Origin: an uncultured delta proteobacterium
GTDB taxonomy: Bacteria > Desulfobacterota > RBG-13-43-22
Length of the DNA stretch: 64,000 bases
NCBI GenBank assembly: GCA_963843145.1
Contig: CAWJJC010000027.1
Coordinates: 352,001-416,000 of the forward strand
Direction: 5' to 3'
A model generated the notes under the pieces. It was not told where the DNA came from. It searched no databases and saw nothing but the letters and a program-made list of their open reading frames with translations. Positions 45,980-63,681 of this stretch are shown here, one piece after another (position 1 is the first letter of the stretch; each line of letters opens with the position of its first letter). Position numbers and translations under genes: made by a program.

Positions 45980-46091
45980 TCTCACGACTCGGGGAGGTCC
46001 TCCGGGGGCAAGCCTATGAAGACAGACTATGGATCAATCGATCATTATTGACAGTCTCACAATTGTGCTTACACGGAGTGTTTTCTTTTTG

Positions 46092-46299
46092 TCTCTCGCC
46101 CGCTTCGCTCGAGTTCGCCGAGGGCGCAGAGAAAGACCAAGTTATTTTTTGAAAAATCGTTGAGACGCCGATTTTTCAAAAGAACTCACGCCTCCGGCGG
46201 GTCTTATTCGCGGAGCGGCAGATTTTTTTTGATTGCCGGCCTCTCAGCGGCAATCAAAAATCATATATTCTCTGCGGTCTCTGTGTGCTCTGTGAGAGA
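46092..46299. repeat. Palindromic MITE-like element with nested hairpins
   Basis: CGCAGAGA / TCTCTGCG arms; inner TTTTGAAAAATCG...CGATTTTTCAAAA and TTTTGATTGCCG...CGGCAATCAAAA. Confidence 0.65.
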
Positions 46300-46583
46300 T
46301 CGTCTTTTGTCTTTGGTCGTGACTGGTGACGTCAAGAAATCCGTTCAATATTATTTGAGACCGTTAATATACTCGCGATTTTCCAATTTCCGATTGATCA
46401 GCCTATGCCACTCGATCTCATTAAAAAAATCGTAAAATTCCGAGTTGAAGAAAACTCGGCGAAGGCAAAAAAGAAATGAAAGCGAAGGCAACAAACAAAA
46501 TGTTTAGACAGGTGGCCGGGTCAAGCTCGGCCACGGTTTACCCTCGGGTTACGGGGGATGGGGCCTGAAAGCAGGTCCGGCGA

Positions 46584-47234: not shown

Positions 47235-47938
47235 CCTTTGCCCCCTAAATCCCCGCGTTTCTGAATCAACCGCAACGCGAAATTGATCAGCAGGGAGATG
47301 GTCAGCAGAATAATCCCCAGGGCCAAGGCCAGCTCGAAGTTCCCTTTGTCGGTTTCCAGGGCGATAGTGGTGGTCATGACCCGGGTATAGCCGGCGATAT
47401 TCCCGCCCACCATCAGGATCGCGCCTACCTCGGCCATTACACGCCCGAAACCCGCGATAATCCCGGCCATGATTCCGTAGCGGGCTTCCCTGACCACTAA
47501 GATCGCCTCCTGGGAAGGGGTGGCGCCCAGGGTCTTGGCTGCCTGCCGGATCACTCCGGGGACATTGACAATAGCCGAGTGGCAGAGGGCGCTGACGATG
47601 GGAAAGGCCAGGATGGTCTGGGCAATCACCATCGCTGAGGGAGTGTAGAGCAGCCCCAGGAACCCGAAAGGTCCTCTGCGGGATAAAAGCAGATAAACAA
47701 AAAGGCCCACCACCACCGGCGGCAGGCCCATAAAGGTATTCAAGAGGTTGATCATCAGGCCCCGGCCGAAAAACCGTTTCAGCCCCAACAAGGCTGCCAA
47801 GGGGAGCCCCAGCAGCGTGGCGATCAGCAAAGCCGATCCGGAGACCCTGAGGGACATCATGATGATCCGCAAGAGTTCCCGGTCCATCGCTCCGATCAGG
47901 GTCAAGGCCGCCGAAAAACTATTAAGAATGGAGTCCAC
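47231..47938 (-). CDS. tupB: Tungstate ABC transporter permease
   Basis: MGLPPVVVGL, FGRVMAEVGA, GGNI...TRVMTTTIALET. Confidence 0.92.
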   Translation of the reverse strand: MDSILNSFSAALTLIGAMDRELLRIIMMSLRVSGSALLIATLLGLPLAALLGLKRFFGRGLMINLLNTFMGLPPVVVGLFVYLLLSRRGPFGFLGLLYTPSAMVIAQTILAFPIVSALCHSAIVNVPGVIRQAAKTLGATPSQEAILVVREARYGIMAGIIAGFGRVMAEVGAILMVGGNIAGYTRVMTTTIALETDKGNFELALALGIILLTISLLINFALRLIQKRGDLGGKG

Positions 47939-47997
47939 TCTTGCCTATCACCCTGAACAGAGACCCGACATTGAAAAAAGAGAGATCCGAAAAATTC

Positions 47998-48837
47998 CTA
48001 TTTCGTTTGACCGGCGTTGGGGAAGAAGAGCACGTTCCCGAACTTGTCCTTATAGGAGCCGATGGCCTGCTGTCCTTCTTTGGAGATCATCCAGTTGACA
48101 AATTCCATCGCTTCTTTAAATTTGGTGTGCTTATATTTTTCGGGGTTGACCGCCATGACGCCATACTGATTGAAGAGCGCCGGGTCCCCCTCCAGGACGA
48201 TGGTCATTTCCAGTTTGTCTTTGTCTTTGGTGGCCAGCCAGGTGCCCCGGTCGGTCAGCGTATAGCCCTTCTTTTCATTGGCGATCCGCTGCGTCTTTTC
48301 CATCCCCTGTCCGACCTCCAGGTACCAGGCCTGGCCTTTGGGGTCCAAGCCCACCTTTTTCCAGAGGGAAAGCTCCTTGGTGTTGGTCCCGGATTTATCC
48401 CCCCGGGAGACAAACGGTCCTTTGCCGGCGGCAATTTTGGAGAAGGCCTCGGTGGCCTGCTTCAACCCCTTTATTTTCAAAGGGTCATCAGCCGGTCCGA
48501 TGAGGACAAAATCGTTGTACATGACGTCATGCCGGTTGACGAAATAGCCTTCGGCCACCGCCTTGAGCTCCAATTCCTTGGCGTGAACCAGGACCACGTC
48601 GCAGTCGCCCCGTTTGCCGATTTCAATGGCCGCTCCGGTACCCACGGCTACCACATCGACTTTGATCCCGGTCTTTTTCTCAAACAAGGGCAGCAGGTAG
48701 TCGAACAATCCGGAATTCTGGGTGCTGGTGGTCGAGGCGCAACGGATGCGCGTCTGGGCCTGGGCGGTACCATTCAGCAGCAGGAAGCCCATCATAAAAA
48801 CAGATAAAAACAAAATCATCGCTTTTCTCATCTTCAT
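47998..48837 (-). CDS. tupA: Tungstate-binding periplasmic protein
   Basis: Signal peptide; ASTTSTQNSGL, GTG, LVHA, MYNDF, SRGDKSGT, DRGT. Confidence 0.93.
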   Translation of the reverse strand: MKMRKAMILFLSVFMMGFLLLNGTAQAQTRIRCASTTSTQNSGLFDYLLPLFEKKTGIKVDVVAVGTGAAIEIGKRGDCDVVLVHAKELELKAVAEGYFVNRHDVMYNDFVLIGPADDPLKIKGLKQATEAFSKIAAGKGPFVSRGDKSGTNTKELSLWKKVGLDPKGQAWYLEVGQGMEKTQRIANEKKGYTLTDRGTWLATKDKDKLEMTIVLEGDPALFNQYGVMAVNPEKYKHTKFKEAMEFVNWMISKEGQQAIGSYKDKFGNVLFFPNAGQTK

Positions 48838-48874
48838 ACCTCCTTAATCAGAAGACCCTTTGACCGAAGAAAAT

Positions 48875-48907
48875 ACCAAGGCGGGGAGTGGGATTACCCG
48901 GCCTTGG
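48875..48907 (-). terminator. Stem-loop between porin and tupA
   Basis: CCAAGGCGGG...CCCGGCCTTGG. Confidence 0.45.
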
Positions 48908-48940
48908 CATTTTTTCAGGAAATAGTAAACAGAACCCGGG

Positions 48941-50377
48941 CTACCAGACTATTTCAAAGCGGGTCAGAATGGCCTGTTCATTATCCATTTTTTTACCGCT
49001 GACGGTGATGGGGTCATCGAACTTGGTATAATAATAATTGACCATGAAGCGCAGCATGTCGTTCGGGTACCAGGTCAGACCCAGGGTATAGCCGGAGGCT
49101 TTGGCGGTGTATTTTTTGGAATCGGCAAATCCCATTTTCAGGATGTCCGGGTCCATATCGATCCATTCATATCGGCCCAGGAGCTGGAAGGCGCCGCAAT
49201 ATCCTGACTTCCCTAAGGCAAAGGGTTTTTTGGGGGTGATTTGCCCCGGCAGCCCGTTCCGCCAGGGTTCCTCTTCACCGGTCAGAAACCATCCCAGGGA
49301 AGCGTAGCCGGCCGTGTTGTCAAAACTGGCCTTTGTCTTGTTGTAGGTCAAATCATTCAACTGCATTTTCATATATTCGGACTTCAGGGAAACCGGACCG
49401 ACCATCCAGGCCAGTTCACCTCCGAAACGGTTGCGGCTGCCGTCCTGGGTCACCGTATCATTAAACTGCAGGAAGGTCGTTCCGCTTTCGGTTTTGTATT
49501 GATACCGCCACCAGTCTGTTGCCGGGGCGGTGGTATGCTGGATCCCGGTGGTGAAGGCCCCGCCAATATGGAAGCCTTTTAAGAACTTATTGTCCACCTT
49601 GGAGAAGGGCGCCAGGGTAACCCGTCCGGCCACGTCTTTCTGGTCGTCCACATCGCTGGAATTGATCTTCCGGCCGTTGAAGACCCCCAACTGATAATAG
49701 AGGAAATCTTTGCTGATATTGCCGTGAAGCATGACGCCCAAGTCCCTAGAGGGAGCAAAATTGTCGGACAGGGAGCGTTCCACGAAATCGATCCAGTTGT
49801 CCGAACTCAATTCTTCCAGACTGAAAGGAACCTTGTATTGCCCGAACATCAATTGGGCATAAGGAAAGTAATTGATATTCAAAAAGGCATCGTTGAGCTG
49901 GGCGTTCCCCTGGCCCATCTCGTATTCCACGCTGAAATTATAGTGTTTATAGAAAGTACCGATGGCGGCCAGTCGAGCGCGCCGGATCAGGAAGGTGTCG
50001 TTGTTGGGATTGTCGTTCAGAAACTGTCGGTAGTCGGCATGCAGCCGCCCGGAAAGTCGGAGCTTATTGTCGCCGTCCTCCGACTCCATGGTAAAACCCT
50101 TCTTGAAATCCACCTTGGCATTCCCCGCCGGGGCCTTTTCTTCCTTGACCTTCTTCTCCAGAGCCCGCAGCCGGGTCAATTCCGCCTCTTCGGCCTCGGC
50201 CTGCTTCTTCATTTCCTGGTACTTTTCCGGTGTAACCATCTTGCTGTTCAGCAGAATTTCCAGGATCTGTTCATTGAGCGATTTGGCCTGGGCCCCTTGG
50301 GGCAGAGCCCAGATGAAAATTCCGGTCAGCAATAAGAATCCAATAGACCTGCCAAAGGTTCGTCCTTTCACCCTCAT
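48941..50377 (-). CDS. OprO/OprP-type oxyanion-selective porin
   Basis: Signal peptide, coiled-coil, IRRARL, GQYKVPFSLEEL, RDLGVM, LTWYPN, C-terminal aromatic W. Confidence 0.85.
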   Translation of the reverse strand: MRVKGRTFGRSIGFLLLTGIFIWALPQGAQAKSLNEQILEILLNSKMVTPEKYQEMKKQAEAEEAELTRLRALEKKVKEEKAPAGNAKVDFKKGFTMESEDGDNKLRLSGRLHADYRQFLNDNPNNDTFLIRRARLAAIGTFYKHYNFSVEYEMGQGNAQLNDAFLNINYFPYAQLMFGQYKVPFSLEELSSDNWIDFVERSLSDNFAPSRDLGVMLHGNISKDFLYYQLGVFNGRKINSSDVDDQKDVAGRVTLAPFSKVDNKFLKGFHIGGAFTTGIQHTTAPATDWWRYQYKTESGTTFLQFNDTVTQDGSRNRFGGELAWMVGPVSLKSEYMKMQLNDLTYNKTKASFDNTAGYASLGWFLTGEEEPWRNGLPGQITPKKPFALGKSGYCGAFQLLGRYEWIDMDPDILKMGFADSKKYTAKASGYTLGLTWYPNDMLRFMVNYYYTKFDDPITVSGKKMDNEQAILTRFEIVW

Positions 50378-50402
50378 GTCTCCCTCCTTTTATGTAATTT
50401 CT

Positions 50403-50436
50403 TTGCCATATATGTCAACAAAGGCATATCTGTCAA
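50403..50436 (-). promoter_or_regulatory. Palindromic operator (13-8-13) overlapping TTGACA -35 of porin-tupABC
   Basis: TTGCCATATATGT-CAACAAAG-GCATATCTGTCAA; 27/34 identical to 61282-61315. Confidence 0.7.
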
Positions 50437-50539
50437 GTTATTTTTCGATTTCCAGGAATATGAGGGGACTGGATCTTGGGGAGTCGTTGGGAGGAAGGGA
50501 AAAGCAAGGTCAGATGAGCAACTCCGACCGAGGAAGTTA

Positions 50540-51012
50540 TAAAATCAGGAGTATCCGGAATCGTCTCCCCGGGAGAAAAACCGGGCCTTCCGCAAGGCAA
50601 TCCGCCGGAAGGCTTCCTTGGCGGTGGCGGAGCCGGCGGTTTCGGCCGGGTCGCCGAGGCGGCCCCACCAAGTAAAATTCATTATACCCGATTAAAGTCC
50701 TTTGGGTGGCCCAGCCTTCCTGAACGGCCTTCTCTTCCCCTTCCGGGGCATGGACCATGATGACATCCACCTTCTTGTTCTTCAGGAGACGCAACGACTC
50801 ACCGGAACCGGCTTTGATCCAGCAAAGGGAGGCCCCCGCCTCTGGCAAAGGCCTCCGGACTTTCAACCCTAATTCACCGGGGCTTCCGGTGGCTACGAAA
50901 ATACGATTGCCGGAGCAAATTCCTTAGTACAGACCGCTTGTGCCAATGGCTGAGGCCAAGCGGTAGCCAGGATCAGAAATACCCAAAGCGTTAGACCGCC
51001 TATTCGACGCAT
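50540..51012 (-). pseudogene. Decayed TupA-like binding protein (ATGSPGELG type)
   Basis: Signal peptide MRRIGGLTLWVF..., ATGSPGELG, KAGSGESL, MVHAP, GYNEF, SRGDDSG across several frames; truncated. Confidence 0.75.
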
Positions 51013-51021
51013 TTCCCGCTA

Positions 51022-51801
51022 TCACTTGCCTTTGATAACCGAGGGTATGGCCTCGGGATAAAACAGGTTGGTCCCATGCTTTTTGTAGCCGGCAATCAGC
51101 TTTTGTCCTTCCACGGAGGTGACGAAGGCGATAAATTCCATGGCCGCCAGGTAATTGGCTTGGGGAAATTTGTCCGGACAAACCGCCATAACGCTGTAAT
51201 AATTCAACAGCAAAGGATCTCCCTTGAAAAGGATCTTCAAACTCAGCTTTGGTTCATATTTCAGAAAAGTCCCCATATCGGTCAAAGTGTAGGCCCCCTG
51301 ACGATCCGCCGCGATCAGGGTATCGGCCATATTGGCCCCGGCCTCCTGATACCAGCTCTTGCCTTTCGGAGTCAGCCCGGCATCGTCCCAGAGATCCAAC
51401 TCCCGGATGTTGGTCCCTGAATCATCCCCCCGAGAGACGAAAAGGCTGCCTTTCTCCGCAATCTCTTCCAAGGCTTCAATGACGGTGCGGGCCTTTTTCA
51501 CCTTGGCCGGGTCCTTGGCCGGTCCAACAATGGCAAACTCATTGTACATCACTTCCCGGCGATTGACTCCATACCCTTCGGCAATGAATTTTTCTTCCCG
51601 GAAAGGATCATGGACAAAAAGTACATCGGCTTCTCCTTTTTTAGCCAGCCGAATAGCCTTGCCCGTACCGACGGAAATAACCTCCACCTTGACCTGGTAT
51701 TTTGAAAATTTCTCATAGGCCGGAATCAAAATGTCAAAAAGACCTGAGTTCTGGGTACTGGTGGTTGAGGCAATGATCAGCTTGTTTTTCGCTTTGGCCA
51801 T
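51022..51801 (-). CDS. TupA-like tungstate-binding protein lacking a signal peptide
   Basis: ASTTSTQNSGL, GTG, MYNEF, SRGDDSGT; AAGGAG RBS; in-frame TAA 8 codons upstream. Confidence 0.85.
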   Translation of the reverse strand: MAKAKNKLIIASTTSTQNSGLFDILIPAYEKFSKYQVKVEVISVGTGKAIRLAKKGEADVLFVHDPFREEKFIAEGYGVNRREVMYNEFAIVGPAKDPAKVKKARTVIEALEEIAEKGSLFVSRGDDSGTNIRELDLWDDAGLTPKGKSWYQEAGANMADTLIAADRQGAYTLTDMGTFLKYEPKLSLKILFKGDPLLLNYYSVMAVCPDKFPQANYLAAMEFIAFVTSVEGQKLIAGYKKHGTNLFYPEAIPSVIKGK

Positions 51802-51889
51802 GGGGATCTCCTTTTTTGTAGGTTAAGTTAATAATATTAATCTTTTTAAATTAATACTTTAACTTGGATTGTCAATGGTCCCCCGGTGG

Positions 51890-52813
51890 TTATTTCCCCC
51901 CCGGGTCATCCCCGTGTTGTTGTTTGATGAACTTCTGGTGAGTGGCCGTGCCCTCTTTTCGGGCCTGCCCGACGCTCAGGAACTTGCCCACCATGAGCAT
52001 GTGCATTTCCGGAGGCAAATTCTGATAATCCACCTCTTTTAGAAACCGGCCGACCGTGCTGCGGATGACTTGCTGTTTCTCCCGGTCGCCGGCATAGGTG
52101 ACTACCGCCACCGGGGTGTCCTGAGGATAGTTCTTCTTAAGCTGGCTGAACAGTTGGGGGTAATCCAGCTTCATGGTATAGAAAACCATGCTGGTTTTAT
52201 GGGTCATCAATTCCTGGTTTTTGTCCTGCCGGCCGGGCCAATCGGTCATGGTCAGGATGACCGAACTGGTGTCCCAGCCATAGGGCGGACTCATCTTGAC
52301 CGCAGCGCTGGAGGCCTGAAAGGCCCCTATCCCGGGAATGATCTCGGAAGGGAAATCCTTGGGCAACATCTCCAGATAAAAGGTGGTTCCATACATCATG
52401 GGGTCCCCCCACTGGAGGGCCGCTACTTTTTTCCCCTGGGCCACCGCTTCTTTGATCTTGCCGATCATCGACTTTCGGGCTTCGGCGTTCCGGATGGCCT
52501 TGGCCCTGGCCTCGGGGTCTTTTAAGGTCTGCGGATCGATCCCATAATACACCCGGGCGACATGTCCCAGGTACCAGACCGGTTTGTCGCCGATCCACTG
52601 TTTCCAAGCCTCCAGATCCGGCCGGTCTTCCAGGATGAAGATATCGGCCTGCTTAACCGTCTCGAGCCCCCGGAGGGTAATCAAATCCGGGCTGCTGCCC
52701 ATGCCGACGATGTAGAATTTCCCCTGATCGGCCCAAAGAGCCGTGGGAAGGGCGATCAGGATTACCGCCCAAAGTGTTAGTAGTGCAATCCTCCAGTCCT
52801 TGGTGATGAACAT
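51890..52813 (-). CDS. Tetrapyrrole methylase (CobM/CbiF-like fold) with N-terminal signal peptide
   Basis: Hydrophobic leader ending ALWA; IVGMGSSPDLITLRG, GDPMMYG, IIPGIGAF. Confidence 0.8.
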   Translation of the reverse strand: MFITKDWRIALLTLWAVILIALPTALWADQGKFYIVGMGSSPDLITLRGLETVKQADIFILEDRPDLEAWKQWIGDKPVWYLGHVARVYYGIDPQTLKDPEARAKAIRNAEARKSMIGKIKEAVAQGKKVAALQWGDPMMYGTTFYLEMLPKDFPSEIIPGIGAFQASSAAVKMSPPYGWDTSSVILTMTDWPGRQDKNQELMTHKTSMVFYTMKLDYPQLFSQLKKNYPQDTPVAVVTYAGDREKQQVIRSTVGRFLKEVDYQNLPPEMHMLMVGKFLSVGQARKEGTATHQKFIKQQHGDDPGGK

Positions 52814-52827
52814 AACTCGCTTCCTTT

Positions 52828-53601
52828 CTAATTTAGTCGATAGACCACTGGGATCTTGATCTGGGCCTCCACGGGTGGATGGGGGAAAGGAACGCTTTCC
52901 TTCAGGGCCTCCAGCGCACCCTGGTCCAGAACCTCGTACCCGGACCCCCTAACCACCTGGGCTTCTTTGATCGATCCGCTCAGGGTGATTACAAAGGAGA
53001 GGACCACCCGGCCCTCCCAGCCCAGACGCCGGGCTAGGGACGGATAGCTGACGTTTTTCAGAATCTTGTCCCGAATATAAGCGAATTGTTCGGCCAGGTA
53101 GCGGTTTTTGGCCTTTTCAGCGCCACCGCTTTCCAAACCCCCTTCCCCGCCGGTACCGCCCTTTCCGGAGGCCGGTCCACTGCCGGAGATCCCGGACTTC
53201 CCTGTTCCCCCGGCTGGCCCGTCTGTCTTTCCCAACCCTCCCGGCACATTCGGCAGGCCGGGCTGTTCCACGGGAACGGTCATGTCTGAAGTGGATTGAA
53301 TCCAGGTCGGGGCGGTTTCCTGGATTTTCGGTGGCGCCGGAGGGGGGAGGCGTTTGTTCTCTTCCCGGGGAACCGGGGCGGGAGCGGCCTGAGGTACTTT
53401 TTTCGATGCCGGCCGAAATGATTTTATTGGAGTGGGCTCCCGGATCTTTTGAACCGGAGCGGGAGTTGGTTTTTCCAGGTCAAAGTCGATGATCATCGGG
53501 TGATGTTTTTTTACTTCCAGCGTGCCGAGACCCAGCACCCCGGCAATCACCGCCGCGTGAATGATCAAAGAATATTGGAGCCCTCTGGCTTGCGGTTTCA
53601 T
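52828..53601 (-). CDS. tonB: Energy transducer TonB
   Basis: SxxxH TM anchor, Pro-rich linker, YPSLARRLGWEG, GSGYEVLD. Confidence 0.9.
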   Translation of the reverse strand: MKPQARGLQYSLIIHAAVIAGVLGLGTLEVKKHHPMIIDFDLEKPTPAPVQKIREPTPIKSFRPASKKVPQAAPAPVPREENKRLPPPAPPKIQETAPTWIQSTSDMTVPVEQPGLPNVPGGLGKTDGPAGGTGKSGISGSGPASGKGGTGGEGGLESGGAEKAKNRYLAEQFAYIRDKILKNVSYPSLARRLGWEGRVVLSFVITLSGSIKEAQVVRGSGYEVLDQGALEALKESVPFPHPPVEAQIKIPVVYRLN

Positions 53602-53978
53602 GGGCGTTCTTCGGTCTGGAGACTGACCCGTTTAAACTGGAGCCTTTTGACCAGATCCAGGACGTCGACGAACCCCTGCAAAGCGATCTGCCGATCTGCC
53701 CGGATCAGGATTGGGATATTCCGATTCAGCCCCTCCAGCCCCTGTTTCAAGCCATCCAGGGCCACCGCTTTGGCGTTCAGGAACAGGTCCCCCCGGCGAT
53801 TAATCTCAATGGTCTGGGTCCGCAGCATCTCCCCCTGGCTTCTAACCACCTTAGGCAGATCGAGAGGAATCATCCCGGTGGCGATAAAGGAAGAAGTGGT
53901 CAGAACGATGGTCAACAGGACCAACATGACGTCCACCAGAGGAATTACATTGATATAATCAAACTCCTTTTCTTCCAT
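53598..53978 (-). CDS. exbD: ExbD/TolR
   Basis: INVIPLVDVMLVLL, IRAD. Confidence 0.92.
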   Translation of the reverse strand: MEEKEFDYINVIPLVDVMLVLLTIVLTTSSFIATGMIPLDLPKVVRSQGEMLRTQTIEINRRGDLFLNAKAVALDGLKQGLEGLNRNIPILIRADRQIALQGFVDVLDLVKRLQFKRVSLQTEERP

Positions 53979-54393
53979 TCAGCACATCCCAATCCAGGAG
54001 CAACACCTTAACCCGGCGAAGCAGGAAATTGTACAAGGTCACCGAGGGAATGGCCACCAGCAATCCCACGGCTGTGGCCTTCAGGGCCAGGGCCAGGCCC
54101 ACCATGATCTTGCCCGTATCCATGAACCCTTCCTGTCCGATGGTATAAAAAGTCAGCATAATCCCTAAAACGGTCCCGAGCAGGCCGATATAGGGCGCAT
54201 TGCTTCCAATGGTGGCAATCAGGTGAAGCTTTCTGGTCAGTTCCTTTTCCAGCGCGGGTTTGTTAGGGAAGTCCTCTAAGCGAAGGCGCCGAAAAACCAA
54301 GTGGCGTTCCAGGGCCACGCTCAAGGCCATGATGCTCAGCAGGATCAGGAACCCGATGATCCCGTAATCGACGGCAATTTTTAACCATTCCAT
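53959..54393 (-). CDS. exbB: ExbB (short form)
   Basis: IATIGSNAPYIGLLGTVLGIM, ALKATAVGLLVAIPS; likely start 54393. Confidence 0.92.
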   Translation of the reverse strand: MEWLKIAVDYGIIGFLILLSIMALSVALERHLVFRRLRLEDFPNKPALEKELTRKLHLIATIGSNAPYIGLLGTVLGIMLTFYTIGQEGFMDTGKIMVGLALALKATAVGLLVAIPSVTLYNFLLRRVKVLLLDWDVLNGRKGV

Positions 54394-54415
54394 AATGTTT
54401 TTCCAAAATAAAGGC

Positions 54416-54460
54416 GCCCCTCCCGTCATCTCGTTATTCTACGGAATGACGAGAGAGGGC
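54416..54460 (-). terminator. Stem-loop after the TonB receptor gene
   Basis: GCCCCTCCCGTCAT...ATGACGAGAGAGGGC. Confidence 0.5.
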
Positions 54461-54483
54461 TTTATTTATCTGCAGGGGGTTCG

Positions 54484-56554
54484 TTAAAACTTACCGGTAA
54501 GACCTGTCCAGAAAGCCCGTCCGGGACCGGGAAACCCGTATTCCGGCTCGTAGTTGATGTCAAAAATATTGTTTACCGCCACATACACTTCGAACCATTT
54601 GAGGATCGGCTGGGTAACTTTGAAGTTGGTCAGGAAATAGTCCCCGGTCTTCAGGGTCTCCAGGTTTTTGTTCTGGGGCGTTGGGAGCTGGGAAAAGGCC
54701 TCGCCGACATACAGCCCGGTCAGATCCAACTTGGTTTTAACCTGAGGGAGGACATATTGTACCCCGAGGTCCAACTTGTGCTGGGGGGAGAAGGTTACGT
54801 CGTCGGTGACCCGTCCGTCACTTTCATTCTTAGAATCGATGTAGGTGTAATCCCCCCGCAGAAGCAGCCCGTCCAGAGGATAGACCGACCCGCCCAACTC
54901 GAAACCCATCCGCTTCACGTTCCCGTAGTTTAGATAGGTGCCGAGAGTACCGGGGGCGTCGCGGGAGATCAGATCGGTGACGTCATGATAGAATAAGGCG
55001 AACTCCAATTGGCCCACCTTGCCCAGGGCCTGATCCACACCCACCGTGTAGTTGAGGCTTTTTTCCGAGGCCAGATCGGTGTTGCCGCCCTTGCTGGAGT
55101 AAAGCTGTTGCAGGGTCGGGAAGCGGGATTTGCGGGCGATGGAGCCGAAGAGCTTGGTCCCATCAACCACCTGGTAATTCAACCCAGCCATGGGATTGAA
55201 TTCGCTGGTGTTGGGCTGGGGGTTGGAGATCTGCTGCACAAAATTACCCGTTTTGGAATCCGTCACATTTTTCTGGGCCTGGGTCACATCAAACCAGTCG
55301 TAGCTGACTCCACCCACCAGAGAAAGATTTTTTACCAGCGTGAATTCGTCTTCCAGACCCCAGGATCCAGTGTAAGACTTGGACTCCGCAAAGGGCAGAT
55401 AGGCATCGTCCCGCTCCTTGTGGTTGTCCTCCTTGTAATGCAAAGACATACGCAGGTTGTTCCATTTCACCGGCTGGTAATCGACAAAATAGGAGCCGCC
55501 CATGATATAATCCTCATAGCGGCTGATGGCGATCTGTTTGGTCAGGGCCGAATCGGCATAAGAAACGTAATCGTCGTTATGATGGTGATAAAAGAGCTTG
55601 GCCTTCATATTCCACTGGTCGTTCAACCGGTGCCTCCCGTCCAGGTCGACCCCCCAATCCTCATAATTCTGGATCCGGACGTTGGCCGTAGAAAAGGCCG
55701 GACGGTTAAGAAACACCGAGTTAGCATCGGTGGAGGCCGGCGCCCCTTTGTCTTTGTTCAGGTAATGGAAATTGACGAAAAATTCTGAATCCTTTAAGGG
55801 GGTCGCCCCGAATTTGGCCCAGAAATTTTTGCTGGTGATGTCCGAATTGTCCCGTTTTCCCCCGTCTTCAAAAACGACGGTGCTTTTCCCGCCCGGGCTA
55901 CGGGTCAGAGTCCCTTTTCTGGGCTGATAATCGTCCGAGAGATTCCAGCCATCCGAGTTCAGGTAGCTGGCATTCAGCCACCAGTTCCAGATCCCTTTCT
56001 TCATGCCGTGGGAGGCCGAAAGGCGGTAGGTGTTGTTCTCGCTGAATTCCACCGTGGCGCTGGTAAAAGGCTTTTCCGAGGGTTGTTTGGTGATAATGTT
56101 GACCACCCCGGCCAGGGCATTGGCCCCGTAGAGGACCGAGGCGCCACCCTTGATGACCTCGATGCGGGCCACGTTGTCGGTGGGAATCTGATTCAGGTCC
56201 AGTTTCCCGAAATTGGTTTCGTAATAGGGGACCCCGTCGATCAGGATCAGGGCCTGGGACTGATCGAAATTTCGAATCGAGACATTGGGTTCGTTTTTTC
56301 GACCGGTGGTGACCTTGACGCCCGGGGCATAACTCAGGGCCTCGGCCACGGTTTTGCTGTTGGTGGCCGCAATGTCTTCGGCGGTGACCTCGGTGATCAC
56401 CGTCGTTTCCCGGACCTTGTCCCCCGAGCACCACGATCTCACCCAGGTTGTAGGTCTCGAATTCCTTGGCCTTCTTTCCCTCGGCCCAGACCAGTCCGGT
56501 CCCCAAGAAAAAGAACAGCGTTAACAGTACACCCATCTTCTCTCTCTTCCTCAT
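54484..56554 (-). CDS. TonB-dependent outer-membrane receptor (one frameshift near 56421-56430)
   Basis: Signal peptide and TonB box LGEIVV in one frame; plug ILIDGVP, RIEVIKGGASVLYGANALAGVVNIIT and C-terminal PGPGRAFWTGLTGKF in the next. Confidence 0.9.
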
Positions 56555-56564
56555 CTTCTCCTCC

Positions 56565-57887
56565 TTATATTTTATTTGCCGGGTTCTTTAATTTTCGGGC
56601 CCAAAAAAAATAAAACGGCAACCCCGATAAGGCGATGATCAGCCCCAACAGCGAGGTCTGGGGCTTCTCCCAGGAAATCTGCCAGGCAATCCAACCGTAG
56701 GCTCCCACAAACACCAGCGGCGTCAGGGGATAACCCCAGGTCCGGTAAGGTCGGAATAGGGCCGGCCTCCTGGCCCGAAGAGTCAAGTGCGCCAGACCCG
56801 TCGCCATCGAGGACACCAGCATGATGAGCACCACATAGCTCAAAAGCTGGTCGAAGCTTCCCCAAAGGACCATACCGGCCGCCAGCAGCCCCTGGGTCAA
56901 AATCGATCCGTAGGGCGTCCGGTGCCGGGGATGAAGCTTTTTCAAAAAGGACCAAAATAGGCCGTCCTCGGCCATGGCGTAAAAAATCCGAGAGCAGGCC
57001 AGGAGCGTGGCATTGATCCCGGAGGCGATGGCCAGTACGATCACCAGGGAGATCAGTCCGGCGTAAGGGCCGCTGAACAAACTTTCCGCCGCCAGTTGGC
57101 CTACATTGACCACCCCCTGAAGCTTCAAGATCGGGACGGCATACAGGTAGGTAATGTTCATTAAGGCATACAATACAGTTACGATCAGGGTTCCCCAGAG
57201 CAGCGATCGGGGAACGTTTTTCTCCGGGTCCCTGACTTCACTGCCCACATACGCCGAGGCGAACCAGCCGCTGTAGGTAAAAATGACGGCGATCATCGGC
57301 GAGGCGAAGAGTTTGGTCCAGGATAGGGGCCCCCCCGTATTCCCTGAAAAATGCTGCCAGCTCCCCTTTCCCCATAGTATTCCTCCCGAGACGAACAGAC
57401 CGATGAGCAACAGGGCGCCCAGGGTAAGAATATCCTGGGTAGTGCTACCCCAGCGTATCCCGCGGTAATTGATCCAGGTAAACAAGGCGATCACCGCCAG
57501 GGCCAGGGCCTTTTCCGAACCCGTGCCGACCCCCGGCAGAAACGGTTTCAGGTAACTGACCAGCGCCAGGGTCAAGGCGGCCATCGAACCCGGAATAATG
57601 ATCCAAAAGTTGACCCAGCCCAGCAAAAATCCGGCCCAGGACCCGTAGGCCTCCTTGAGGAACTGGTAGTCCCCGCCGGCTCGGGGAAACAAACCGGCCA
57701 GTTCGGCATAGGTCAGGGCCCCGCAAAGCGTGAGCACCCCCCCGATGATCCAGATGCCGACAAACCAGAAAGGCTGGGGCAGCTCACCGGCCAGAAAACC
57801 GCTGGTGGTGAAGATGCCGGCGCCCACCACGTTGCCCACCACCAGCAGAATGGCATCCGAAAGTTTAAGACTTCGATTGAGCGGCAA
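56565..57887 (-). CDS. APC-family amino acid/polyamine permease
   Basis: GNVVGAGIF, YAEL...PRAGGDY, YSGW, RIFYAMAEDG, RPYRTWGYP. Confidence 0.9.
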   Translation of the reverse strand: MPLNRSLKLSDAILLVVGNVVGAGIFTTSGFLAGELPQPFWFVGIWIIGGVLTLCGALTYAELAGLFPRAGGDYQFLKEAYGSWAGFLLGWVNFWIIIPGSMAALTLALVSYLKPFLPGVGTGSEKALALAVIALFTWINYRGIRWGSTTQDILTLGALLLIGLFVSGGILWGKGSWQHFSGNTGGPLSWTKLFASPMIAVIFTYSGWFASAYVGSEVRDPEKNVPRSLLWGTLIVTVLYALMNITYLYAVPILKLQGVVNVGQLAAESLFSGPYAGLISLVIVLAIASGINATLLACSRIFYAMAEDGLFWSFLKKLHPRHRTPYGSILTQGLLAAGMVLWGSFDQLLSYVVLIMLVSSMATGLAHLTLRARRPALFRPYRTWGYPLTPLVFVGAYGWIAWQISWEKPQTSLLGLIIALSGLPFYFFWARKLKNPANKI

Positions 57888-57907
57888 AGATCGGTTTCCA
57901 GTTCAGG

Positions 57908-59693
57908 TTAATGATGGCGGTCCAACGTCTGAGACTCCAGGCAAGCCCCGATGTAAATCATGCCCAGCCACTTTTCTTTTTCGTCCCAGGCGATGGACAG
58001 GGCCTTATCCAGCGTGGTCTTCACCAGACGTTCGCTGTCGGCAAAACCCACCCGGTAGGCAAAATAAACCGGGGTGGAAGGCGGGTAATAGCCGCCCAAC
58101 AGATCCACCAGACTCTTCAGTTCCTTCAATCCCATGAACAGGGCCAGGGTGTCTCCCTTCTCAACCGCCGCCTTAAGCAACGCCGGGTTATCTTTCAACG
58201 CCCAGGAGGTGGATAGGACAATCGACCCTCCCCGGCAGGCCAGTTCCTTCCCGATGAGCGCGTTGGCGGCGTTGAAGGCGCTGATCCCCGGGATGAACTC
58301 CTTTTCCTGATCACCCAATCGGGCGGCGATCTCGCGCAGACTCCCATAGATAAAGGGATCCCCGTATTCCAGCAGGGCCACGTTCTTCCCCCGCCGGAGT
58401 TCCGCCTGGATCAGTTCCACTGCTTCCACGATCTTTTTTTCCAGCAGGGCCTTTTTTTCCTCCGGTGACAGCTTGCCCAGCTCCTTTCCATAAATGGGCT
58501 CCGGCATTAAATACTTAAAGGGATCAAACAGGACCGGGCGTCCTCCGATGTAGGCGGCCAGCCGTTTTTTCAGATCGTCGCTGCAGACGAAGACATCGAC
58601 CCGCCCCAGGGCCGATAAGGCCTGCTGGGTTAACAGGTCCGGATCGGCGCAACCCACACTGATCAGGTAGGCCTTGGGCTTCCGGATCAGGTTGATGACC
58701 TCGATCCGAGAAACGGCCATCACCCAGCGGTCGGCCGACAAGTCATCGGGAATCACCAGCTTGAACTTGCCGCTCGTCCTCCTGGAGGGGCTTTCCTTCT
58801 TTCCGGTCGGCGATGATGATCCGCCGGCCCAGGGGATTGAGCACCAGCTCCCCCATGGAAATCAGGGATCGGTACCCGTCCGGGGCCGAAATGACAACGG
58901 CCGAATCCAGGTCCTGGGTTGCCCCGGCCCGGGTGAGCAGGTCCGTTAGGGGGGTCCCTTCGAAACGAAACAAACCGTGATAACCCCTCCCCTCGCCTGC
59001 GACCTTGCCCATCACTTCCAGTCGGGGATAAGCCGATAAATTAGTTACGGTCAGCAGCGTTTTGCTATCCTGACCCACCGTCAGCTCGGGGGCAAAAAGC
59101 TCCTTCATCCGTTTCACCGGCATTTTGAAATGCAGGTCGACCACCTCGATACTGGCCACGTTTTCCAGGGACCGTTCGGTATAAAAATCGTTGGCCACCA
59201 CCAGCCTGGGTAAGCCCACCTTTCGCTTCAAGGGATCTTGCCAGACCCGGTAAACCTCCGGGGTGTGACAGGCGGCGCAGTCTCTGTGGGGCATGACGGG
59301 CTCCGCCTGGAAGGCCACGATCAATTCCGCCGGATTGCGGTAAAAAACTTCCCCCCAGGAAAGGACGGTCTCGCGGCCCTCGCGATTGCGGACCACGATA
59401 GCCAGGTCATCCGGTTTGCCAAACGCGGATTCCCCCTTCTGCACCACCGCGGTCTCCAGCAACTCCCTCAACGGCACCCCGCGGTAGTTGAAAACACCGT
59501 GAAAGGTTTTGTCCCGGGTCAGTTCATTCAGACGCACTGAAACCGATTGAAAGCGAGCCAGGTCGGAGAGGCTGAATTGAAGCGGTTGTTTGACGGCGCC
59601 CATGATGTGCAGGCTTTCCAAGGTACCGGCCTGCACCCCGGAACCGATCAACAGGAGACTCAGACCATAAACGACCCATTTCATCTTCTTCAT
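57908..59693 (-). CDS. Exported fusion: two molybdopterin-oxidoreductase-like domains with CxxCH + tetrapyrrole-methylase domain (frameshift near 58772)
   Basis: Signal peptide; YRGVPLRELL and FEGTPLTDLL...APDGY repeats; CAACH; a shifted frame continues SGKFKLVIPDDLSADRWV into ISVGCADPDLLT...GDPFIYG...IPGISAF. Confidence 0.7.
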
Positions 59694-59711
59694 AAAACAA
59701 TACTCCTTTTA

Positions 59712-60470
59712 TTAAACGGATTTTCGCTGCGGAAAATACCAGACCAGGGCCAGAATCAGGACAATGAACCCCCAGAAAATGAAGGGCCGGCCGGGGTCCC
59801 GTTTGATAACCACCTTCAACTCTTGACCCGGCTGGGCCTTTTTGGCCAAGTCCAGATGAAAGGTATATCCCTTCCAAGAGACCGGTTGCATGATCTGGAG
59901 CTCCCGGGATTCCAGGCTGCCGGCGGCGTCAAGCAGCAGAACCGCCCGGCATTGCTGTACCATCCCCCGGATAGGCTCCGGCCCCGGATAGCGCTGACAG
60001 TCTTGATTGATCACCCGGACCATCCCGGCGCCCGGAAGACGGATACCGCTTTCCGGGTTGTTCGGAATGACCCCATTGAAGCCCACGACCAGGCTGATCC
60101 AGTGCCCGGAAAGGATGACCAGGAAACATAAATGGATCAAGGAAGGGCTGAGTCGGATGGAAAAAGTTCGGGCCCCGATCTGTCTCCTTAAAGGCCATAA
60201 ATGGATCAGTCGTTTCAAAGCGCAGACCACGGTATTGATGCCCAAAAAGAACAGCAGGAGAAAAAGACTCCCCAGCCACCAGAGTTGGTTGACCTGGGAA
60301 CGACCCACTTGCTGCACCCACTCTTGAATCAACATCTGGTTCAGCGAATTGAAGAAAGTAAAATTAAACTTCAAATAATAGGAACCGATCCCCAGGTTGG
60401 CGGAAATCAACAACAGCAACCAGAAGTTGACCTTGACCTCGCCGCAGAAATCCCAAATCTTTTTAAGCAT
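59712..60470 (-). CDS. CcsB/ResB-like cytochrome c biogenesis protein (short)
   Basis: Three N-terminal TMs with INTVVC and LIHLCFLVILSGH, periplasmic domain, DPG plus final TM. Confidence 0.65.
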   Translation of the reverse strand: MLKKIWDFCGEVKVNFWLLLLISANLGIGSYYLKFNFTFFNSLNQMLIQEWVQQVGRSQVNQLWWLGSLFLLLFFLGINTVVCALKRLIHLWPLRRQIGARTFSIRLSPSLIHLCFLVILSGHWISLVVGFNGVIPNNPESGIRLPGAGMVRVINQDCQRYPGPEPIRGMVQQCRAVLLLDAAGSLESRELQIMQPVSWKGYTFHLDLAKKAQPGQELKVVIKRDPGRPFIFWGFIVLILALVWYFPQRKSV

Positions 60471-60474
60471 TCCT

Positions 60475-61233
60475 CTATCCCCCGATCCGTGGCGGTAGGT
60501 TGGTTTCGGTCAAGAACCCTAAGTAGCCGTAAAGCAGGATCATTGCCGGCCCGACCAGCGAGAAGCGGGCCTCGGTCCGCAGATTCCAGACCGGAAGATA
60601 GCGAAGATGCAGCAAAGCCGCATAAAAACACCAGAGTGAAGCGGATTGCAGGTGACGGGCGCTCCAATGTAAGGGGGTGGCCCAACCCAGATAGGCCCAG
60701 TAGGCACCCACCACCTGGGCGCCGCTGAAAAAGATAAACCCCCAGACCAGGAAGGAATGGAAAAGACGGGCCGTTTCATCCTGTCGCAAGTAGATCAGGC
60801 CCAACATGCTCCCCGCGATAAAACAGGCGTGGCTGAAAACCTCCAGCATAAAGAACAGCCAAGAAAAAAAGGTCTGGGTTTTCGGATTGGGCGGAACCAC
60901 CCCCAGGGGAAAAAGAAAAGCCAATACCGAGAAGACCACCAGGGGGATCAGTAGCCCGCCGGCGAGAGAGGCTTTCCCGGGAATGAATCTGAAGCCCAAA
61001 GCCAACGCCGCCAAGCACCAGGGAAGAAAAAAACTCTCTTCAAAAAGGGCATAGGGGGACCAAATCCCGACAAGCCCTCCCCGGTTGATCAGAAAGATGG
61101 TGTGTCCCAGGAAACCGAGCACCAGGCAGACGAAGGGAATGTATCTCCGCCGGAATAGCCAGGCGACCATTGAAGCGGCATAAAAACCCGTTACGAGCGA
61201 AAAGCCGTTATTTATTGCTATCGAGATCATCAA
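60475..61233 (-). CDS. CcsA/ResC-like cytochrome c assembly protein, divergent WWD motif
   Basis: GHT, GAYWAYLGWATPLHWSARH, YAALLHLR; multi-TM. Confidence 0.75.
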   Translation of the reverse strand: MMISIAINNGFSLVTGFYAASMVAWLFRRRYIPFVCLVLGFLGHTIFLINRGGLVGIWSPYALFEESFFLPWCLAALALGFRFIPGKASLAGGLLIPLVVFSVLAFLFPLGVVPPNPKTQTFFSWLFFMLEVFSHACFIAGSMLGLIYLRQDETARLFHSFLVWGFIFFSGAQVVGAYWAYLGWATPLHWSARHLQSASLWCFYAALLHLRYLPVWNLRTEARFSLVGPAMILLYGYLGFLTETNLPPRIGG

Positions 61234-61281
61234 TTAAAATTTTTTTCGGAAACGGGATGAGCGAGAAGAACTATGTCTTTT

Positions 61282-61315
61282 TTGACATGTATGCCAAGAC
61301 AAGCATATATGTCAA
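61282..61315 (-). promoter_or_regulatory. Palindromic operator (13-8-13) overlapping TTGACA -35 of the ccs/TonB operon
   Basis: TTGACATGTATGC-CAAGACAA-GCATATATGTCAA. Confidence 0.72.
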
Positions 61316-61348
61316 GAATATTTTCCGGGGATCACTAAAAAATTAATT

Positions 61349-63553
61349 TTACTGAAATCGAGCTTGGAGGGCCTTATAGTTCCAGCCGAAGGAAACCAGC
61401 AGCTCCTCCCCGGCCTTGAGGAGCAGTTCGAGGTATTTTTTTTGGTCGTAGGGTTCTTGGCCGCTCAGGAAGGGGGCGGGGACCACCCGCTCCTCGGGCC
61501 GGGTCGCCCCGCTGTCTCGCAGGAGAAAGGACACCCGTTGGCCGGGCTGGAGGGTCAGCCCCTCGGCCTCCAGTTGCTGGAGGGTCAGGGCCGACTGGGT
61601 AGCCACCCGGTACTGGTCCAGGGGACGGCTGGATCGGCGGGTGATGATCAGTTCCGTGGGGTGGACCCGTCCGTCTTTCAGCAGTCCGGCGTATTCGCCC
61701 AGACGGGTCAGCATTTCCGGCACCTGTTTTTCCAGAGCTTGCCGGTCTCCGGCCCGGGCCATCCAGCCCAGAAGTTCCTCCTGCACCTCCCGGACGAAGC
61801 GGGGGACGTCCTTGCGGCAGCGGGCGATCCCCCGGGTCTTGAGGGTCCCGTTTTGAAAGGCCCCGAAGTAGCGGTTGGCCACCGGACGGCGCGGCTGGAC
61901 CTTGGAAGGCAGGAAGACGATCCAATGATAAATTCCCTCCAGACTTATGGGAACCTGAGTCTTTCGCTCGATTTCCTCAAGCAAAATCTTAAGGTCCACT
62001 TCCGTCAGCCGCTCCCCCTGGAGCCAGAGGGAATCGGTCAGCCCGTGGAGGACCTGGTAGCCCCGGGCCTCGGCGCACTCCTTGGCGATCAGCAGCTTGT
62101 CCCGGCCGAAGGCGGTGATGGCCTCGTGGGCCTCGATCCGACCGAAGCGGGCGTTCTTGTAGCCCAGGTAGCCGAAGCAGGTGACCAGCACCCACTTCAA
62201 CCCTTTCTGCAGGGCCTGATAAACGGCCATCCGCGGATGCCCGGCCTTGATCCGGGCCTTGAGCTCGGTCCGCAGCTTCAGGATCGGCTCCAATGTTTCA
62301 GGCACCAGTCCCCGACGGCGCCGACAAATATTGTAGCCCGCCTCCGGGACCACCGGTTCCGGGCAGCAGGAACATAGCATGGTTTCGGGCGAGATATTGT
62401 GCCGGACCATGATGGTGGGATACATGGAGGCATAGTCGATCTCGGCCACCCGCTCTCGGAGTCCGATCGGCGGCTGGAAGACCAGCCCTCCCTTGTCCGC
62501 AACCAGGAGGTCCCAGGCGGTCTTGAAGTCCTCGGGCCGCCCCTTTTTCCAGGGGATCAGGATCCCTTTCTGTACCGCCCGGTCGAGCTGCATGGAGGTG
62601 ATGGCCGTGCCCGGCGAGGTCCGGGCCAGGGTCTGGACCGGGATTTTGGTCAGTCGGGCCAGGGAAATGGTTCCCTCCAGGCCGCACTCGCCTTGGGTGA
62701 AGAAAAAGGAATTGTTCCGGTCGATGTGGAAGCGTCCGAAGAGGGGGAAGGCCGCGCCCTGGTAGGCGATCTGACCGTAAGTGAAGTAAGAGCGCCCTTC
62801 CCCCACCCGCCGCCGCGCCGGAGGGTGGGGGTCCCGATCCAGGACCAAAGGAATTCTTTCCTTCTCCGCCCAGCGCCAGAGACAGGGAAAGATGCGGCCG
62901 TCCCCCTGCTGGGAAAGGAGGCAGTCCGGATCCAGACGGGCGATCAGCCGGTTGAACTCGGTCAGGAACTCCGCGGGAGTCAGGCCGTCCAGTTCGAAGA
63001 CCCGGTCCTCGTAAATGACCCGCAGGCTGTTGCCCCGGTCCAAAGGAATCTGGGGGTGTTTCGCCAGGGTGAGCTCGACAACTTTCAGAGAGGGGATCGG
63101 AGCATCCGGGTCCCAGGGAGAATGGAGGACCTTGAGGCCCCGGAGCTGATTGCGCTCCCATTCGAACTCGCAGAAGGCCAGGGGGAAGACGCCCCGCTCG
63201 TAGGCGTAGTACTGGGGGACGGCCAAATCGCAGTTATAAAAGGTGATCCCGCCGGCCCAGTCGGCCAGGCGCCGCTGGATCTCCGGAAGCTTCTGCAGGG
63301 CCCGGACCTCCAGCTCAAAAACCGGCATTGCCTTGCCGCTCCAGAATTCGGTCCGCTTAGTCCAGCCCGTGCGCCGCAGATACCGACCGAGCCCTCTTTC
63401 CAGGGCGCTCAGAGCGGACCGGGTCCCCTGGGCGTAAAAGCGGTAGCCGAAATAGTCGGTCAGGCAGAGCATCTCCCCGCCCGTTAATCGAAACCAGAGG
63501 ACCATCACGTCCTCCCGCACATAGAGGTCGAAGAGCCAGCCTTTGGCGATCAT
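61349..63553 (-). CDS. Family B DNA polymerase, PolB2-like
   Basis: DYASMYP, NISPET, LKWVLVTCFGYLG, HGLTDSLW, NRYFG, RGI; no clear Exo motifs. Confidence 0.85.
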   Translation of the reverse strand: MIAKGWLFDLYVREDVMVLWFRLTGGEMLCLTDYFGYRFYAQGTRSALSALERGLGRYLRRTGWTKRTEFWSGKAMPVFELEVRALQKLPEIQRRLADWAGGITFYNCDLAVPQYYAYERGVFPLAFCEFEWERNQLRGLKVLHSPWDPDAPIPSLKVVELTLAKHPQIPLDRGNSLRVIYEDRVFELDGLTPAEFLTEFNRLIARLDPDCLLSQQGDGRIFPCLWRWAEKERIPLVLDRDPHPPARRRVGEGRSYFTYGQIAYQGAAFPLFGRFHIDRNNSFFFTQGECGLEGTISLARLTKIPVQTLARTSPGTAITSMQLDRAVQKGILIPWKKGRPEDFKTAWDLLVADKGGLVFQPPIGLRERVAEIDYASMYPTIMVRHNISPETMLCSCCPEPVVPEAGYNICRRRRGLVPETLEPILKLRTELKARIKAGHPRMAVYQALQKGLKWVLVTCFGYLGYKNARFGRIEAHEAITAFGRDKLLIAKECAEARGYQVLHGLTDSLWLQGERLTEVDLKILLEEIERKTQVPISLEGIYHWIVFLPSKVQPRRPVANRYFGAFQNGTLKTRGIARCRKDVPRFVREVQEELLGWMARAGDRQALEKQVPEMLTRLGEYAGLLKDGRVHPTELIITRRSSRPLDQYRVATQSALTLQQLEAEGLTLQPGQRVSFLLRDSGATRPEERVVPAPFLSGQEPYDQKKYLELLLKAGEELLVSFGWNYKALQARFQ

Positions 63554-63681
63554 GGGATATTTTTCGGGACTTATCAATTTGTTGCCAATCGGAAGTTAAT
63601 CTTCCAATGAACAAGGATAGGTTTCGCGACGTCTGATGTATTTAAAAGGTTTTGGGTGGACCTGAAGGATCATAAGACCGG

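Follow-up and report, generated by a model that had tools for sequence, protein, structure and literature searches.

Operons for the TonB-dependent uptake of chelates (siderophores, heme, or vitamin B12) code for a receptor with a plug, a barrel, and a TonB box, carry their own exbB, exbD, and tonB genes behind an operator that overlaps the promoter, and include a binding protein and an ATP-binding cassette (ABC) importer of the Fhu, Btu, or Hmu type. For tungsten and molybdenum (W/Mo), the only uptake routes known to us are diffusion through porins and the Mod, Tup, and Wtp ABC transporters, and we know of no described tup locus with a TonB-dependent receptor (TBDR) or methylases. Syntrophic and fermentative anaerobes of soils, wetlands, and digesters channel their electrons through enzymes that use these metals, such as formate dehydrogenases (FDHs) and aldehyde oxidoreductases (AORs). 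Here, we analyzed a stretch of 64,000 nucleotides (the window) from an uncultured delta proteobacterium (GenBank assembly GCA_963843145.1, contig CAWJJC010000027.1, positions 352,001 to 416,000), in which an original prediction, made by a model from the sequence, had proposed a W/Mo-linked periplasmic uptake and processing system. All nine of the tightly packed, co-oriented genes that it listed were found on the minus strand (51890-61233, intergenic gaps of -20 to +54 nt).

The operon resembles the chelate operons in its receptor, its exbB-exbD-tonB genes, and its operator, but the receptor reaches no subfamily cutoff, there is no Fhu-, Btu-, or Hmu-type binding protein or ABC importer, and instead we found an APC permease, two exported proteins with a methylase fold (MT1 and MT2), and a CcsA/ResB-like pair. 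The exported class III methylases, the PruR-like domains fused to one of them, and the miniature CcsA/ResB pair have no counterpart in any described uptake system, and a search of the openly available literature found no paper describing such a system. It is a widespread, uncharacterized variant of TonB-dependent metal acquisition. As for its role, our tentative reading, to which we give a probability of about 0.45, is that the operon forms a W/Mo-regulated TonB-dependent acquisition system working with the adjacent tungstate ABC transporter.

An operator in common with the tungstate genes

The operon and the tungstate locus had been predicted to have an operator in common, and this operator is real. 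The window contains five matches to TGACATATATG-type repeats where 0.28 would be expected, and they fall at two sites, 61283-61314 and 50404-50435. The repeats form GACATAtaTG-type arrays with an 18-nt phase that overlap a promoter-like TTGGCA-16-CATAGT. One site (61270-61320, minus strand, three repeats over a sigma-70-like promoter) is the operator and promoter of the operon, and the other (50400-50440, minus strand) lies upstream of the porin and tupABC; these are the only two double sites in the 5.3-Mb genome. The same motif is found upstream of the CcsA-like gene in six related loci (L006, L008, L012, L014, L015, and L045) and upstream of the porin in L006 to L008. A single palindrome on another contig (C8:49266) precedes an unrelated small open reading frame (ORF), and the TOBE/mod locus on contig C19 has no double operator site. 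A regulator with the HTH_3 plus PBP_like architecture, which we take to be that of the tungstate regulator TunR, was not found in this genome, where only a 640-aa PBP_like-containing ORF was detected (contig C17).

The original prediction had named control by a cobalamin riboswitch or a Fur box as the mark of a B12 or heme system. Neither was found: there was no Rfam match to a cobalamin or Moco (molybdenum cofactor) riboswitch in the window or in 14 related loci, and no match to the Fur box consensus with up to three mismatches. The general promoter scan was not above background (9 found, 7.9 expected), and no clear terminator was detected between MT2 and tupA2. Directly upstream of the operator ends a gene for a family B DNA polymerase (742 aa, 61349-63577).

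The tungstate locus lies directly downstream of the operon, as had been claimed, and on the same strand. It contains a TupA-like binding protein without a signal peptide (51022-51801, Pfam PBP_like_2), a third binding-protein gene with a signal peptide that is broken or truncated (50537-51012), an anion-selective porin (Porin_O_P, 48941-50377), and the tupA (with a signal peptide), tupB, and tupC genes of a tungstate-type ABC transporter (46584-48837). Like TupABC, these genes match the TupA model, BPD_transp_1, and ABC_tran, and they have the operator of the operon; the TupA-like copy without a signal peptide sets them apart. This leaderless protein has a good ribosome-binding site, starts with MAKAKNKLIIASTTSTQ, and is conserved in the same form in L006 and L008; it may bind or sense tungstate in the cytoplasm. 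The third gene is intact in L008 (287 aa, L008:11729-12592), and further assembly indels may explain its broken state in the window.

Within the operon, the TBDR (about 690 aa, 54484-56554) has a signal peptide, a TonB box, and Plug and TonB_dep_Rec barrel domains. It scores 164.8 bits on the TonB-hemin subfamily model (cutoff, 316.85) and 134.7 to 138.4 bits on BtuB/B12 models (cutoffs, 599.7 to 836). The gene is preceded by the 440-aa permease of the APC superfamily (56565-57887, Pfam AA_permease_2, E value of 4e-58) and followed by type 2 ExbB (53959-54429; TIGR02805, 160.4 bits against an equivalog cutoff of 135.35), ExbD (53598-53978, Pfam ExbD), and TonB (52828-53601, Pfam TonB_C). Neither a Btu/Hmu-type ABC importer nor cob/cbi genes were found in the cluster or among its recurrent neighbors. 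With no receptor cutoff reached and no importer, riboswitch, or Fur box found, the operon matches no described B12 or heme uptake system.

Two genes of the operon are interrupted in the window. In the first (57908-59693), the ORF with Oxidored_molyb, CAACH, and a Sec-type signal peptide (58743-59693) and the ORF with the TP_methylase domain of MT1 (57908-58756) are in different frames; in the TBDR, the signal peptide and TonB box are in an ORF (55898-56554) separate from the plug and barrel (54484-56442). In all eight aligned loci of relatives, the oxidoreductase-like part and the methylase form a single ORF (582 to 635 aa as called, roughly 580 to 610 aa counted from the leader). We compared Logan contigs of four public runs (X1, X2, X3, and X7) with the window over 54400-59800 and found base omissions at two sites only. 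One base is omitted at 58774/58776 in the short-read contigs of the independent runs X2 and X1 (the latter otherwise with 0 mismatches over 278 nt), and another at 56429, inside a G5 run of the TBDR, in those of X3 and X7. The runs with near-identical pieces have small word shares (at most 0.17) and are labeled as soil, sediment, marsh, and wetland metagenomes. Since the short-read contigs leave out one base at each site, the frameshifts are assembly errors and both genes are intact. The nearest relative, L006 (about 92% DNA identity over window positions 46000-61500), has 58 gaps in 7 kb and several broken genes. Both assemblies thus appear to be indel prone; therefore, we took both the fusion, of about 590 aa, and the TBDR, of about 690 aa, to be complete, and short ORF breaks elsewhere in the genome should be read cautiously. 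The fusion of an oxidoreductase-like protein with a methylase had been correctly predicted.

Exported methylase folds, PruR-like domains, and a small CcsA/ResB-like pair

MT1, the C-terminal part of the fusion, and MT2, a protein of 307 aa encoded by the last gene of the operon (51890-52813), are predicted to be class III methyltransferase folds closest to CbiF, CobM, and CysG. Both match TP_methylase (PF00590, 131.4 and 121.2 bits against a cutoff of 27.8). The methylase fold consists of two alpha/beta domains like those of CbiF (VIA Z of 15.4, 224 residues aligned to 2cbf), and the structure model of MT2, of moderate confidence (pLDDT of 74.2), retrieved a CbiF-type fold with Foldseek at an E value of 5.5e-16. 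A hydrophobic stretch at the N terminus is present in 108 of the 120 homologs listed for MT2 and in all 120 listed for the fusion, and the leader of MT2 looks cleavable in all 21 aligned members, so that the predicted export of both methylases holds. The same MT2 homologs keep two of the motifs of CbiF, CobM, and other class III methyltransferases that use S-adenosylmethionine (SAM), namely, the GDPxxYG type (GD(P/A), 120/120) and PG(I/V)(G/S)AF (114/120).

They differ from CbiF and CobM in their Sec export, in an insert of ca. 45 residues between motifs I and II (motif I of MT1 is GCADPDLLT), and in a gene context of transport instead of cobalamin synthesis. They are annotated as "precorrin-4 methylase" by JGI; as CobM/CbiF orthologs they were rejected, with 79.7 and 82.6 bits on NCBIfam TIGR01465, about one-third of its cutoff of 259.65, and as cytoplasmic cob/cbi enzymes they were rejected considering their conserved signal peptides, their transport-gene neighbors, and the presence of the ordinary cobalamin methylases of this genome on contig C20. 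A search of MT2 against a protein-cluster atlas returned only its own TP_methylase clusters. A precedent for a tetrapyrrole-pathway fold moved to the periplasm beside transport genes is known from Desulfovibrio vulgaris, whose CbiK(P) is exported, binds heme, and is a paralog of a tetrapyrrole enzyme of the cytoplasm, but it has a chelatase fold, no methylase, and no W/Mo link.

The N-terminal part of the fusion contains two domains with the fold of the sulfite oxidase family (SUOX), modeled with a pLDDT of 81.8 at residues 23 to 187 (with the CAACH) and 194 to 333. Besides the Pfam match to Oxidored_molyb (43.4 bits against 24), they resemble the sulfite oxidase folds SorA (2blf, Z of 16.3) and SoxC (2xts, Z of 16.0) and also PruR (VIA Z of 14.8 over 121 residues of 7kp2 and 14.3 over 123 residues of 7rkb, the neopterin complex); a search of the PDB with the sequence of the SUOX-like domain alone gave no match. 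No Cys is invariant or nearly so within residues 1 to 335 of 27 fusion homologs, where the variable CxxCH is the sole Cys motif. The leaders are of the Sec type (MKKMKWVVYGLSLLLIGSGVQAG) and have no TAT_signal Pfam match; hence, the fusion cannot be exported with Moco already bound. We therefore rejected a SUOX-family molybdoenzyme: the fold is present, but the Mo-ligand Cys is absent and the leaders are not twin-arginine (TAT) signals.

The available text of PMC11194511 describes PruR as just such an exported SUOX fold without the Mo-ligand Cys, which binds pterins other than Moco, sandwiching them between a conserved Tyr and Trp with a hydrogen bond from an Asn (Y104, W160, and N102 in the At protein). 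Each N-terminal domain of the fusion is likewise a small, exported SUOX fold without a conserved Cys; unlike PruR, the domains show no match at the sequence level, are duplicated, include one with CxxCH, and are joined to a methylase. The invariant D-G-Y of domain 2 may correspond to the pterin-contact residues of PruR. No GGDEF or EAL partner, as in a pruR-dcpA type operon, was found in the cluster. If these domains do bind pterins, they would extend periplasmic pterin binding beyond c-di-GMP signaling. A pterin cofactor was one of several ligands considered in the original prediction, and it has gained unexpected support from the likeness of both Cys-less domains to PruR.

The operon begins with a CcsA/ResC-like membrane protein of 252 aa (60475-61233; Pfam Cytochrom_C_asm, 40.8 bits against a cutoff of 29.9), followed by a short ResB/CcsB-like membrane protein, also of 252 aa (59712-60470), with no Pfam family above threshold. 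As in CcsBA/ResBC of System II, Cytochrom_C_asm is matched by all eight CcsA-like family members (best E value, 2.3e-15), there is a W-rich motif (GAYWAYLGWATPLHWSARH) with an invariant HLR and flanking invariant His194 and His209, the partner is weakly ResB-like (PF05140 below the cutoff in 6/7 members; best E value, 1.7e-4; 0.34 for the window copy) with invariant His113 and His123, and a putative CxxCH client is encoded in the adjacent gene. Unlike them, both proteins have only about half of the usual length, the pair is divergent and comes in addition to two canonical Cytochrom_C_asm copies elsewhere in the genome, and it is kept in clusters without CxxCH. PDB sequence searches with the CcsA-like and ResB-like profiles gave no match, including to the solved CcsBA.

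The pair had been predicted to be the system's own heme lyase for the CxxCH of the fusion. In favor of this, CxxCH is present in 104 of the 120 listed fusion homologs (CAACH in the window). Against it, no CxxCH protein was called in four Smithella-type clusters (L013, L014, L015, and L045) or in L066; of these loci, L015, L045, and L066 keep both the CcsA-like and the ResB-like gene and L014 keeps the CcsA-like one, while L013 begins downstream of the pair. The two proteins may therefore do more than attach heme to the fusion, and the claim stands in a weakened form. The motif has also been lost from the fusion in the Smithella group and L058.

Distribution and gene neighbors

We found 584 homologs of MT2 (E value of <=1e-10) and 651 of the fusion (E value of <=1e-5). 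The MT2 homologs are 58 to 87% identical, come nearly all from metagenome-assembled genomes (MAGs), and belong to Thermodesulfobacteriota-type Deltaproteobacteria, Acidobacteriota, Armatimonadota, Planctomycetota, Spirochaetota, and Myxococcota; within the order of the source organism, MT2 is patchy (7/21 genomes). The cluster is conserved as a unit, with the full nine-gene architecture in 7 of 80 related loci (L006, L008, L012, L013, L014, L015, and L045). In a different order, a spirochaetotal locus (L080) combines tupCBA, a TBDR, three methylases, CcsA-like and ResB-like genes, and a CxxCH fusion.

To describe the gene neighborhood, genes within 9 kb of MT2 in the 80 loci were clustered and annotated. 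The most frequent neighbor is a TBDR (22 loci, plus 7 with one of a second type), together with a ModC-like ATPase with TOBE (18), ModA (15), a cytochrome c7-like protein (15), an APC permease (11), ModB/TupB (10), a regulator with HTH_3 and PBP_like (10), and TupA (7); rarer neighbors are XdhC, AOR, and molybdopterin oxidoreductases. A linkage of MT2 to tup/mod genes was found, with at least one gene for Mo/W transport or its regulation no more than 9 kb away in 27/80 loci from several phyla (19/49 of those with at least 5 kb on both flanks) and in the tight codirectional run of MT2 itself in 14/75, whereas by our own estimate, which is not a computed control, a randomly placed gene would be linked in about 1%. 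FDH-type molybdopterin enzymes also occur next to the cluster: in L013 and L014 it is followed by a molybdopterin oxidoreductase that is exported via TAT and whose gene is split in the way a selenocysteine codon would split it, and in L045 it is preceded by FDH beta- and gamma-like genes. Two other elements were seen at these loci. A Solibacteraceae MAG has two fluoride riboswitches (L062:10926-10992, plus strand, and 16857-16925, minus strand) flanking the region just downstream of its MT2 homolog, and a related MAG has a group II intron domain (RF02001, L012:16941-17112) downstream of the cluster.

A profile search of 1.84 billion representatives with an MT2-type profile gave 67 representatives at an E value of <=1e-30. 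These wider relatives have leaders nearly throughout, and many keep the full canonical GxGPGDPDL motif. Among relatives scoring well above the level of CbiF, three proteins join an MT2-like domain to DUF4198, and one each to rhodanese (P0362), SBP_bac_6, and a single SUOX domain. DUF4198 includes, according to the available text of PMC12663993, the periplasmic zinc-capture protein Zcp. Using an alignment as the query (a single DUF4198 fusion gave nothing), we examined 50 loci of this sister branch, all from metagenomes and 4 kb or longer, and found a TBDR in 24, a DUF4198 protein in 23, and an APC permease in 18, the latter 38% identical to that of the window (E value of 1e-97). A TBDR, an exported methylase, and an APC permease therefore recur together in a design that extends beyond W/Mo, and the W/Mo and SUOX-like version of the window is one variant of it.

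Some loci of the DUF4198 branch also contain FmdE, stand-alone in three and, in five (L112:3334-4830, L146:2904-4400, L149, L151, and L178; four of the five near-identical), fused to an inosine-uridine nucleoside hydrolase with a signal peptide. These fusions adjoin exported methylases, DUF4198 proteins, and the APC permease, and they would fit a periplasmic disposal of S-adenosylhomocysteine (SAH).

A proposed acquisition route and its rivals

In the acquisition system that we favor, a shortage of W/Mo would cause a repressor to leave the operator. The TBDR, driven by ExbB-ExbD-TonB, would import W/Mo in an organic complex whose size or scarcity puts it beyond the porin, most likely of the pterin type since the periplasmic capture domains resemble PruR. 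Both exported methylase-fold enzymes, with a heme c matured by the CcsA/ResB-like pair, would then modify the ligand to release the oxyanion, which would pass to TupA and on to TupBC, and the APC permease would move an amino acid-type partner over the inner membrane, for the supply of SAM, the removal of SAH, or the transfer of the modified ligand. If true, TonB-driven import followed by processing in the periplasm would account for the supply of W/Mo to these organisms when the metals are scarce or bound to organic matter. The large clade of exported class III methyltransferases also places a SAM-type fold in a compartment without a known SAM supply, so that the fold must have a new use unless SAM is exported, for which the APC permease is a candidate. 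A more specific version, which we consider unlikely, makes periplasmic SAM-dependent methylation a step of trace-metal acquisition that salvages W/Mo from environmental molybdopterin-type cofactors. Here, the TBDR would import a W/Mo-pterin, the PruR-like domains would hold the pterin while the exported methylases methylate its dithiolene sulfurs, and the heme c would oxidize the ligand; the oxyanion would go to TupABC, and a dedicated APC permease would export SAM or recover SAH. Such S-methylation is chemically conceivable, since the human catabolism of Moco includes the methyltransferase-dependent formation of urothione, as reported in the available text of PMC9607355.

Several observations weigh against a W/Mo acquisition system of this kind. 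We know of no SAM source in the periplasm, the greatest difficulty for the mechanism, and motif I of MT2, a shortened GMG(T/S)APDLIT, lacks the Asp found in canonical GAGPGDP. Pterin binding by the fusion is a prediction from the likeness of its fold. The TupA-like proteins of the window score 227.2 and 254.8 bits on NF041772, for which the equivalog cutoff is 400. In 53/80 loci, MT2 has no gene for Mo/W transport or its regulation within 9 kb, and tup and mod genes are absent from the loci of the DUF4198 branch. Finally, the response of the operator to W/Mo is predicted from its targets, and in Smithella genomes the motif precedes a [FeFe]-hydrogenase large-subunit gene divergent from the cluster, and two perfect copies precede a [NiFe]-hydrogenase small-subunit gene (these hydrogenase-linked sites are L102 in G002:C192, L014:258-1034, and L096:1680-2906 in G004:C142). 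The signal of the operator could therefore be other than W/Mo, and its regulon may tie the uptake of metals to which hydrogenase or formate dehydrogenase is used. Of the original prediction, the conserved unit, the co-regulation and co-localization with W/Mo uptake genes, the export of the methylases, and the lack of a match to B12 or heme systems all hold; the design proved wider than W/Mo, given the tup-free DUF4198 branch, and the dedicated heme lyase is the part that has lost ground.

The recurrence of the triad with DUF4198 proteins and without tup or mod genes also supports a generic metallophore-processing module, neither a W/Mo nor a pterin system, which we regard as somewhat unlikely. 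In such a module, the TBDR would import a metal with an amino acid-derived chelator, the exported methylases would methylate the chelator and so lower its affinity for the metal, TupA (or elsewhere DUF4198, a zinc-capture family) would capture the metal, and the APC permease would import the modified apo-ligand. The fusions of MT2-like domains to DUF4198 and SBP_bac_6 and the similarity of the APC permeases of both branches fit this, but no chelator-biosynthesis genes were seen in the cluster of the window or in the recurrent neighbor clusters, and the two PruR-like domains are left unexplained, as is periplasmic SAM. An uptake or handling of tetrapyrroles (heme or corrinoids), with a tungstate link that is regulatory only, seems improbable to us. 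The TBDR would import the tetrapyrrole, the methylase-fold proteins would bind or modify it, and the CcsA/ResB-like pair would move it through the inner membrane, in agreement with a methylase fold closest to CbiF, CobM, and CysG, with the hemin and B12 scores of the TBDR, and with a CcsA-like gene that persists without CxxCH, as if handling free tetrapyrrole. Those scores are, however, far under the cutoffs (164.8 against 316.85 and 138.4 against 599.7), neither a cobalamin riboswitch nor a Fur box nor a Btu/Hmu-type transporter nor cob/cbi genes turned up in the loci searched, and the linkage to mod/tup across phyla would have no explanation.

Equally improbable is a periplasmic conversion of the thiotungstate or thiomolybdate of sulfidic habitats, via S-methylation and heme-dependent oxidation, to oxyanions that TupA or ModA can bind. 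The carriers are labeled as anaerobe lineages (Syntrophaceae, Smithella, Desulfatiglandales, Acidobacteriota, and Spirochaetota), the near-identical pieces come from soil, sediment, marsh, and wetland runs, cytochrome c7-like (15/80) and CCP/MauG-like (6/80) proteins are neighbors of MT2, and minimal mod operons exist with MT2 and without a TBDR (L010 and L084). The case for sulfur chemistry, though, has a single rhodanese fusion (P0362) as its basis and no chemical precedent; small anions would need no TBDR, and the PruR-like domains would be unused. That the TonB system, the permease, and mis-annotated cytoplasmic cobalamin methylases are merely adjacent, without a common function, agrees with the "precorrin-4 methylase" label, but it is already contradicted by the conservation of gene order and operator in seven loci and by the recurrence of the triad in a distant branch. 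Canonical cobalamin methylases are encoded elsewhere in the genome, the CobM/CbiF scores (80 to 83 bits) are low, and the signal peptides are conserved, so that we consider this last explanation highly improbable.

Besides the fusions to other domains, the wider MT2 family includes tandem methylase-methylase proteins, four from the census of fusions and another, P0266, from a word search. In the tandem MT2-type proteins (among them P0266, P0267, P0273, and P0274), the first copy of P0266 has a degenerate GDP motif (ADDP), which suggests that the products of paired methylase genes assemble into heterodimers in which one subunit is noncatalytic.

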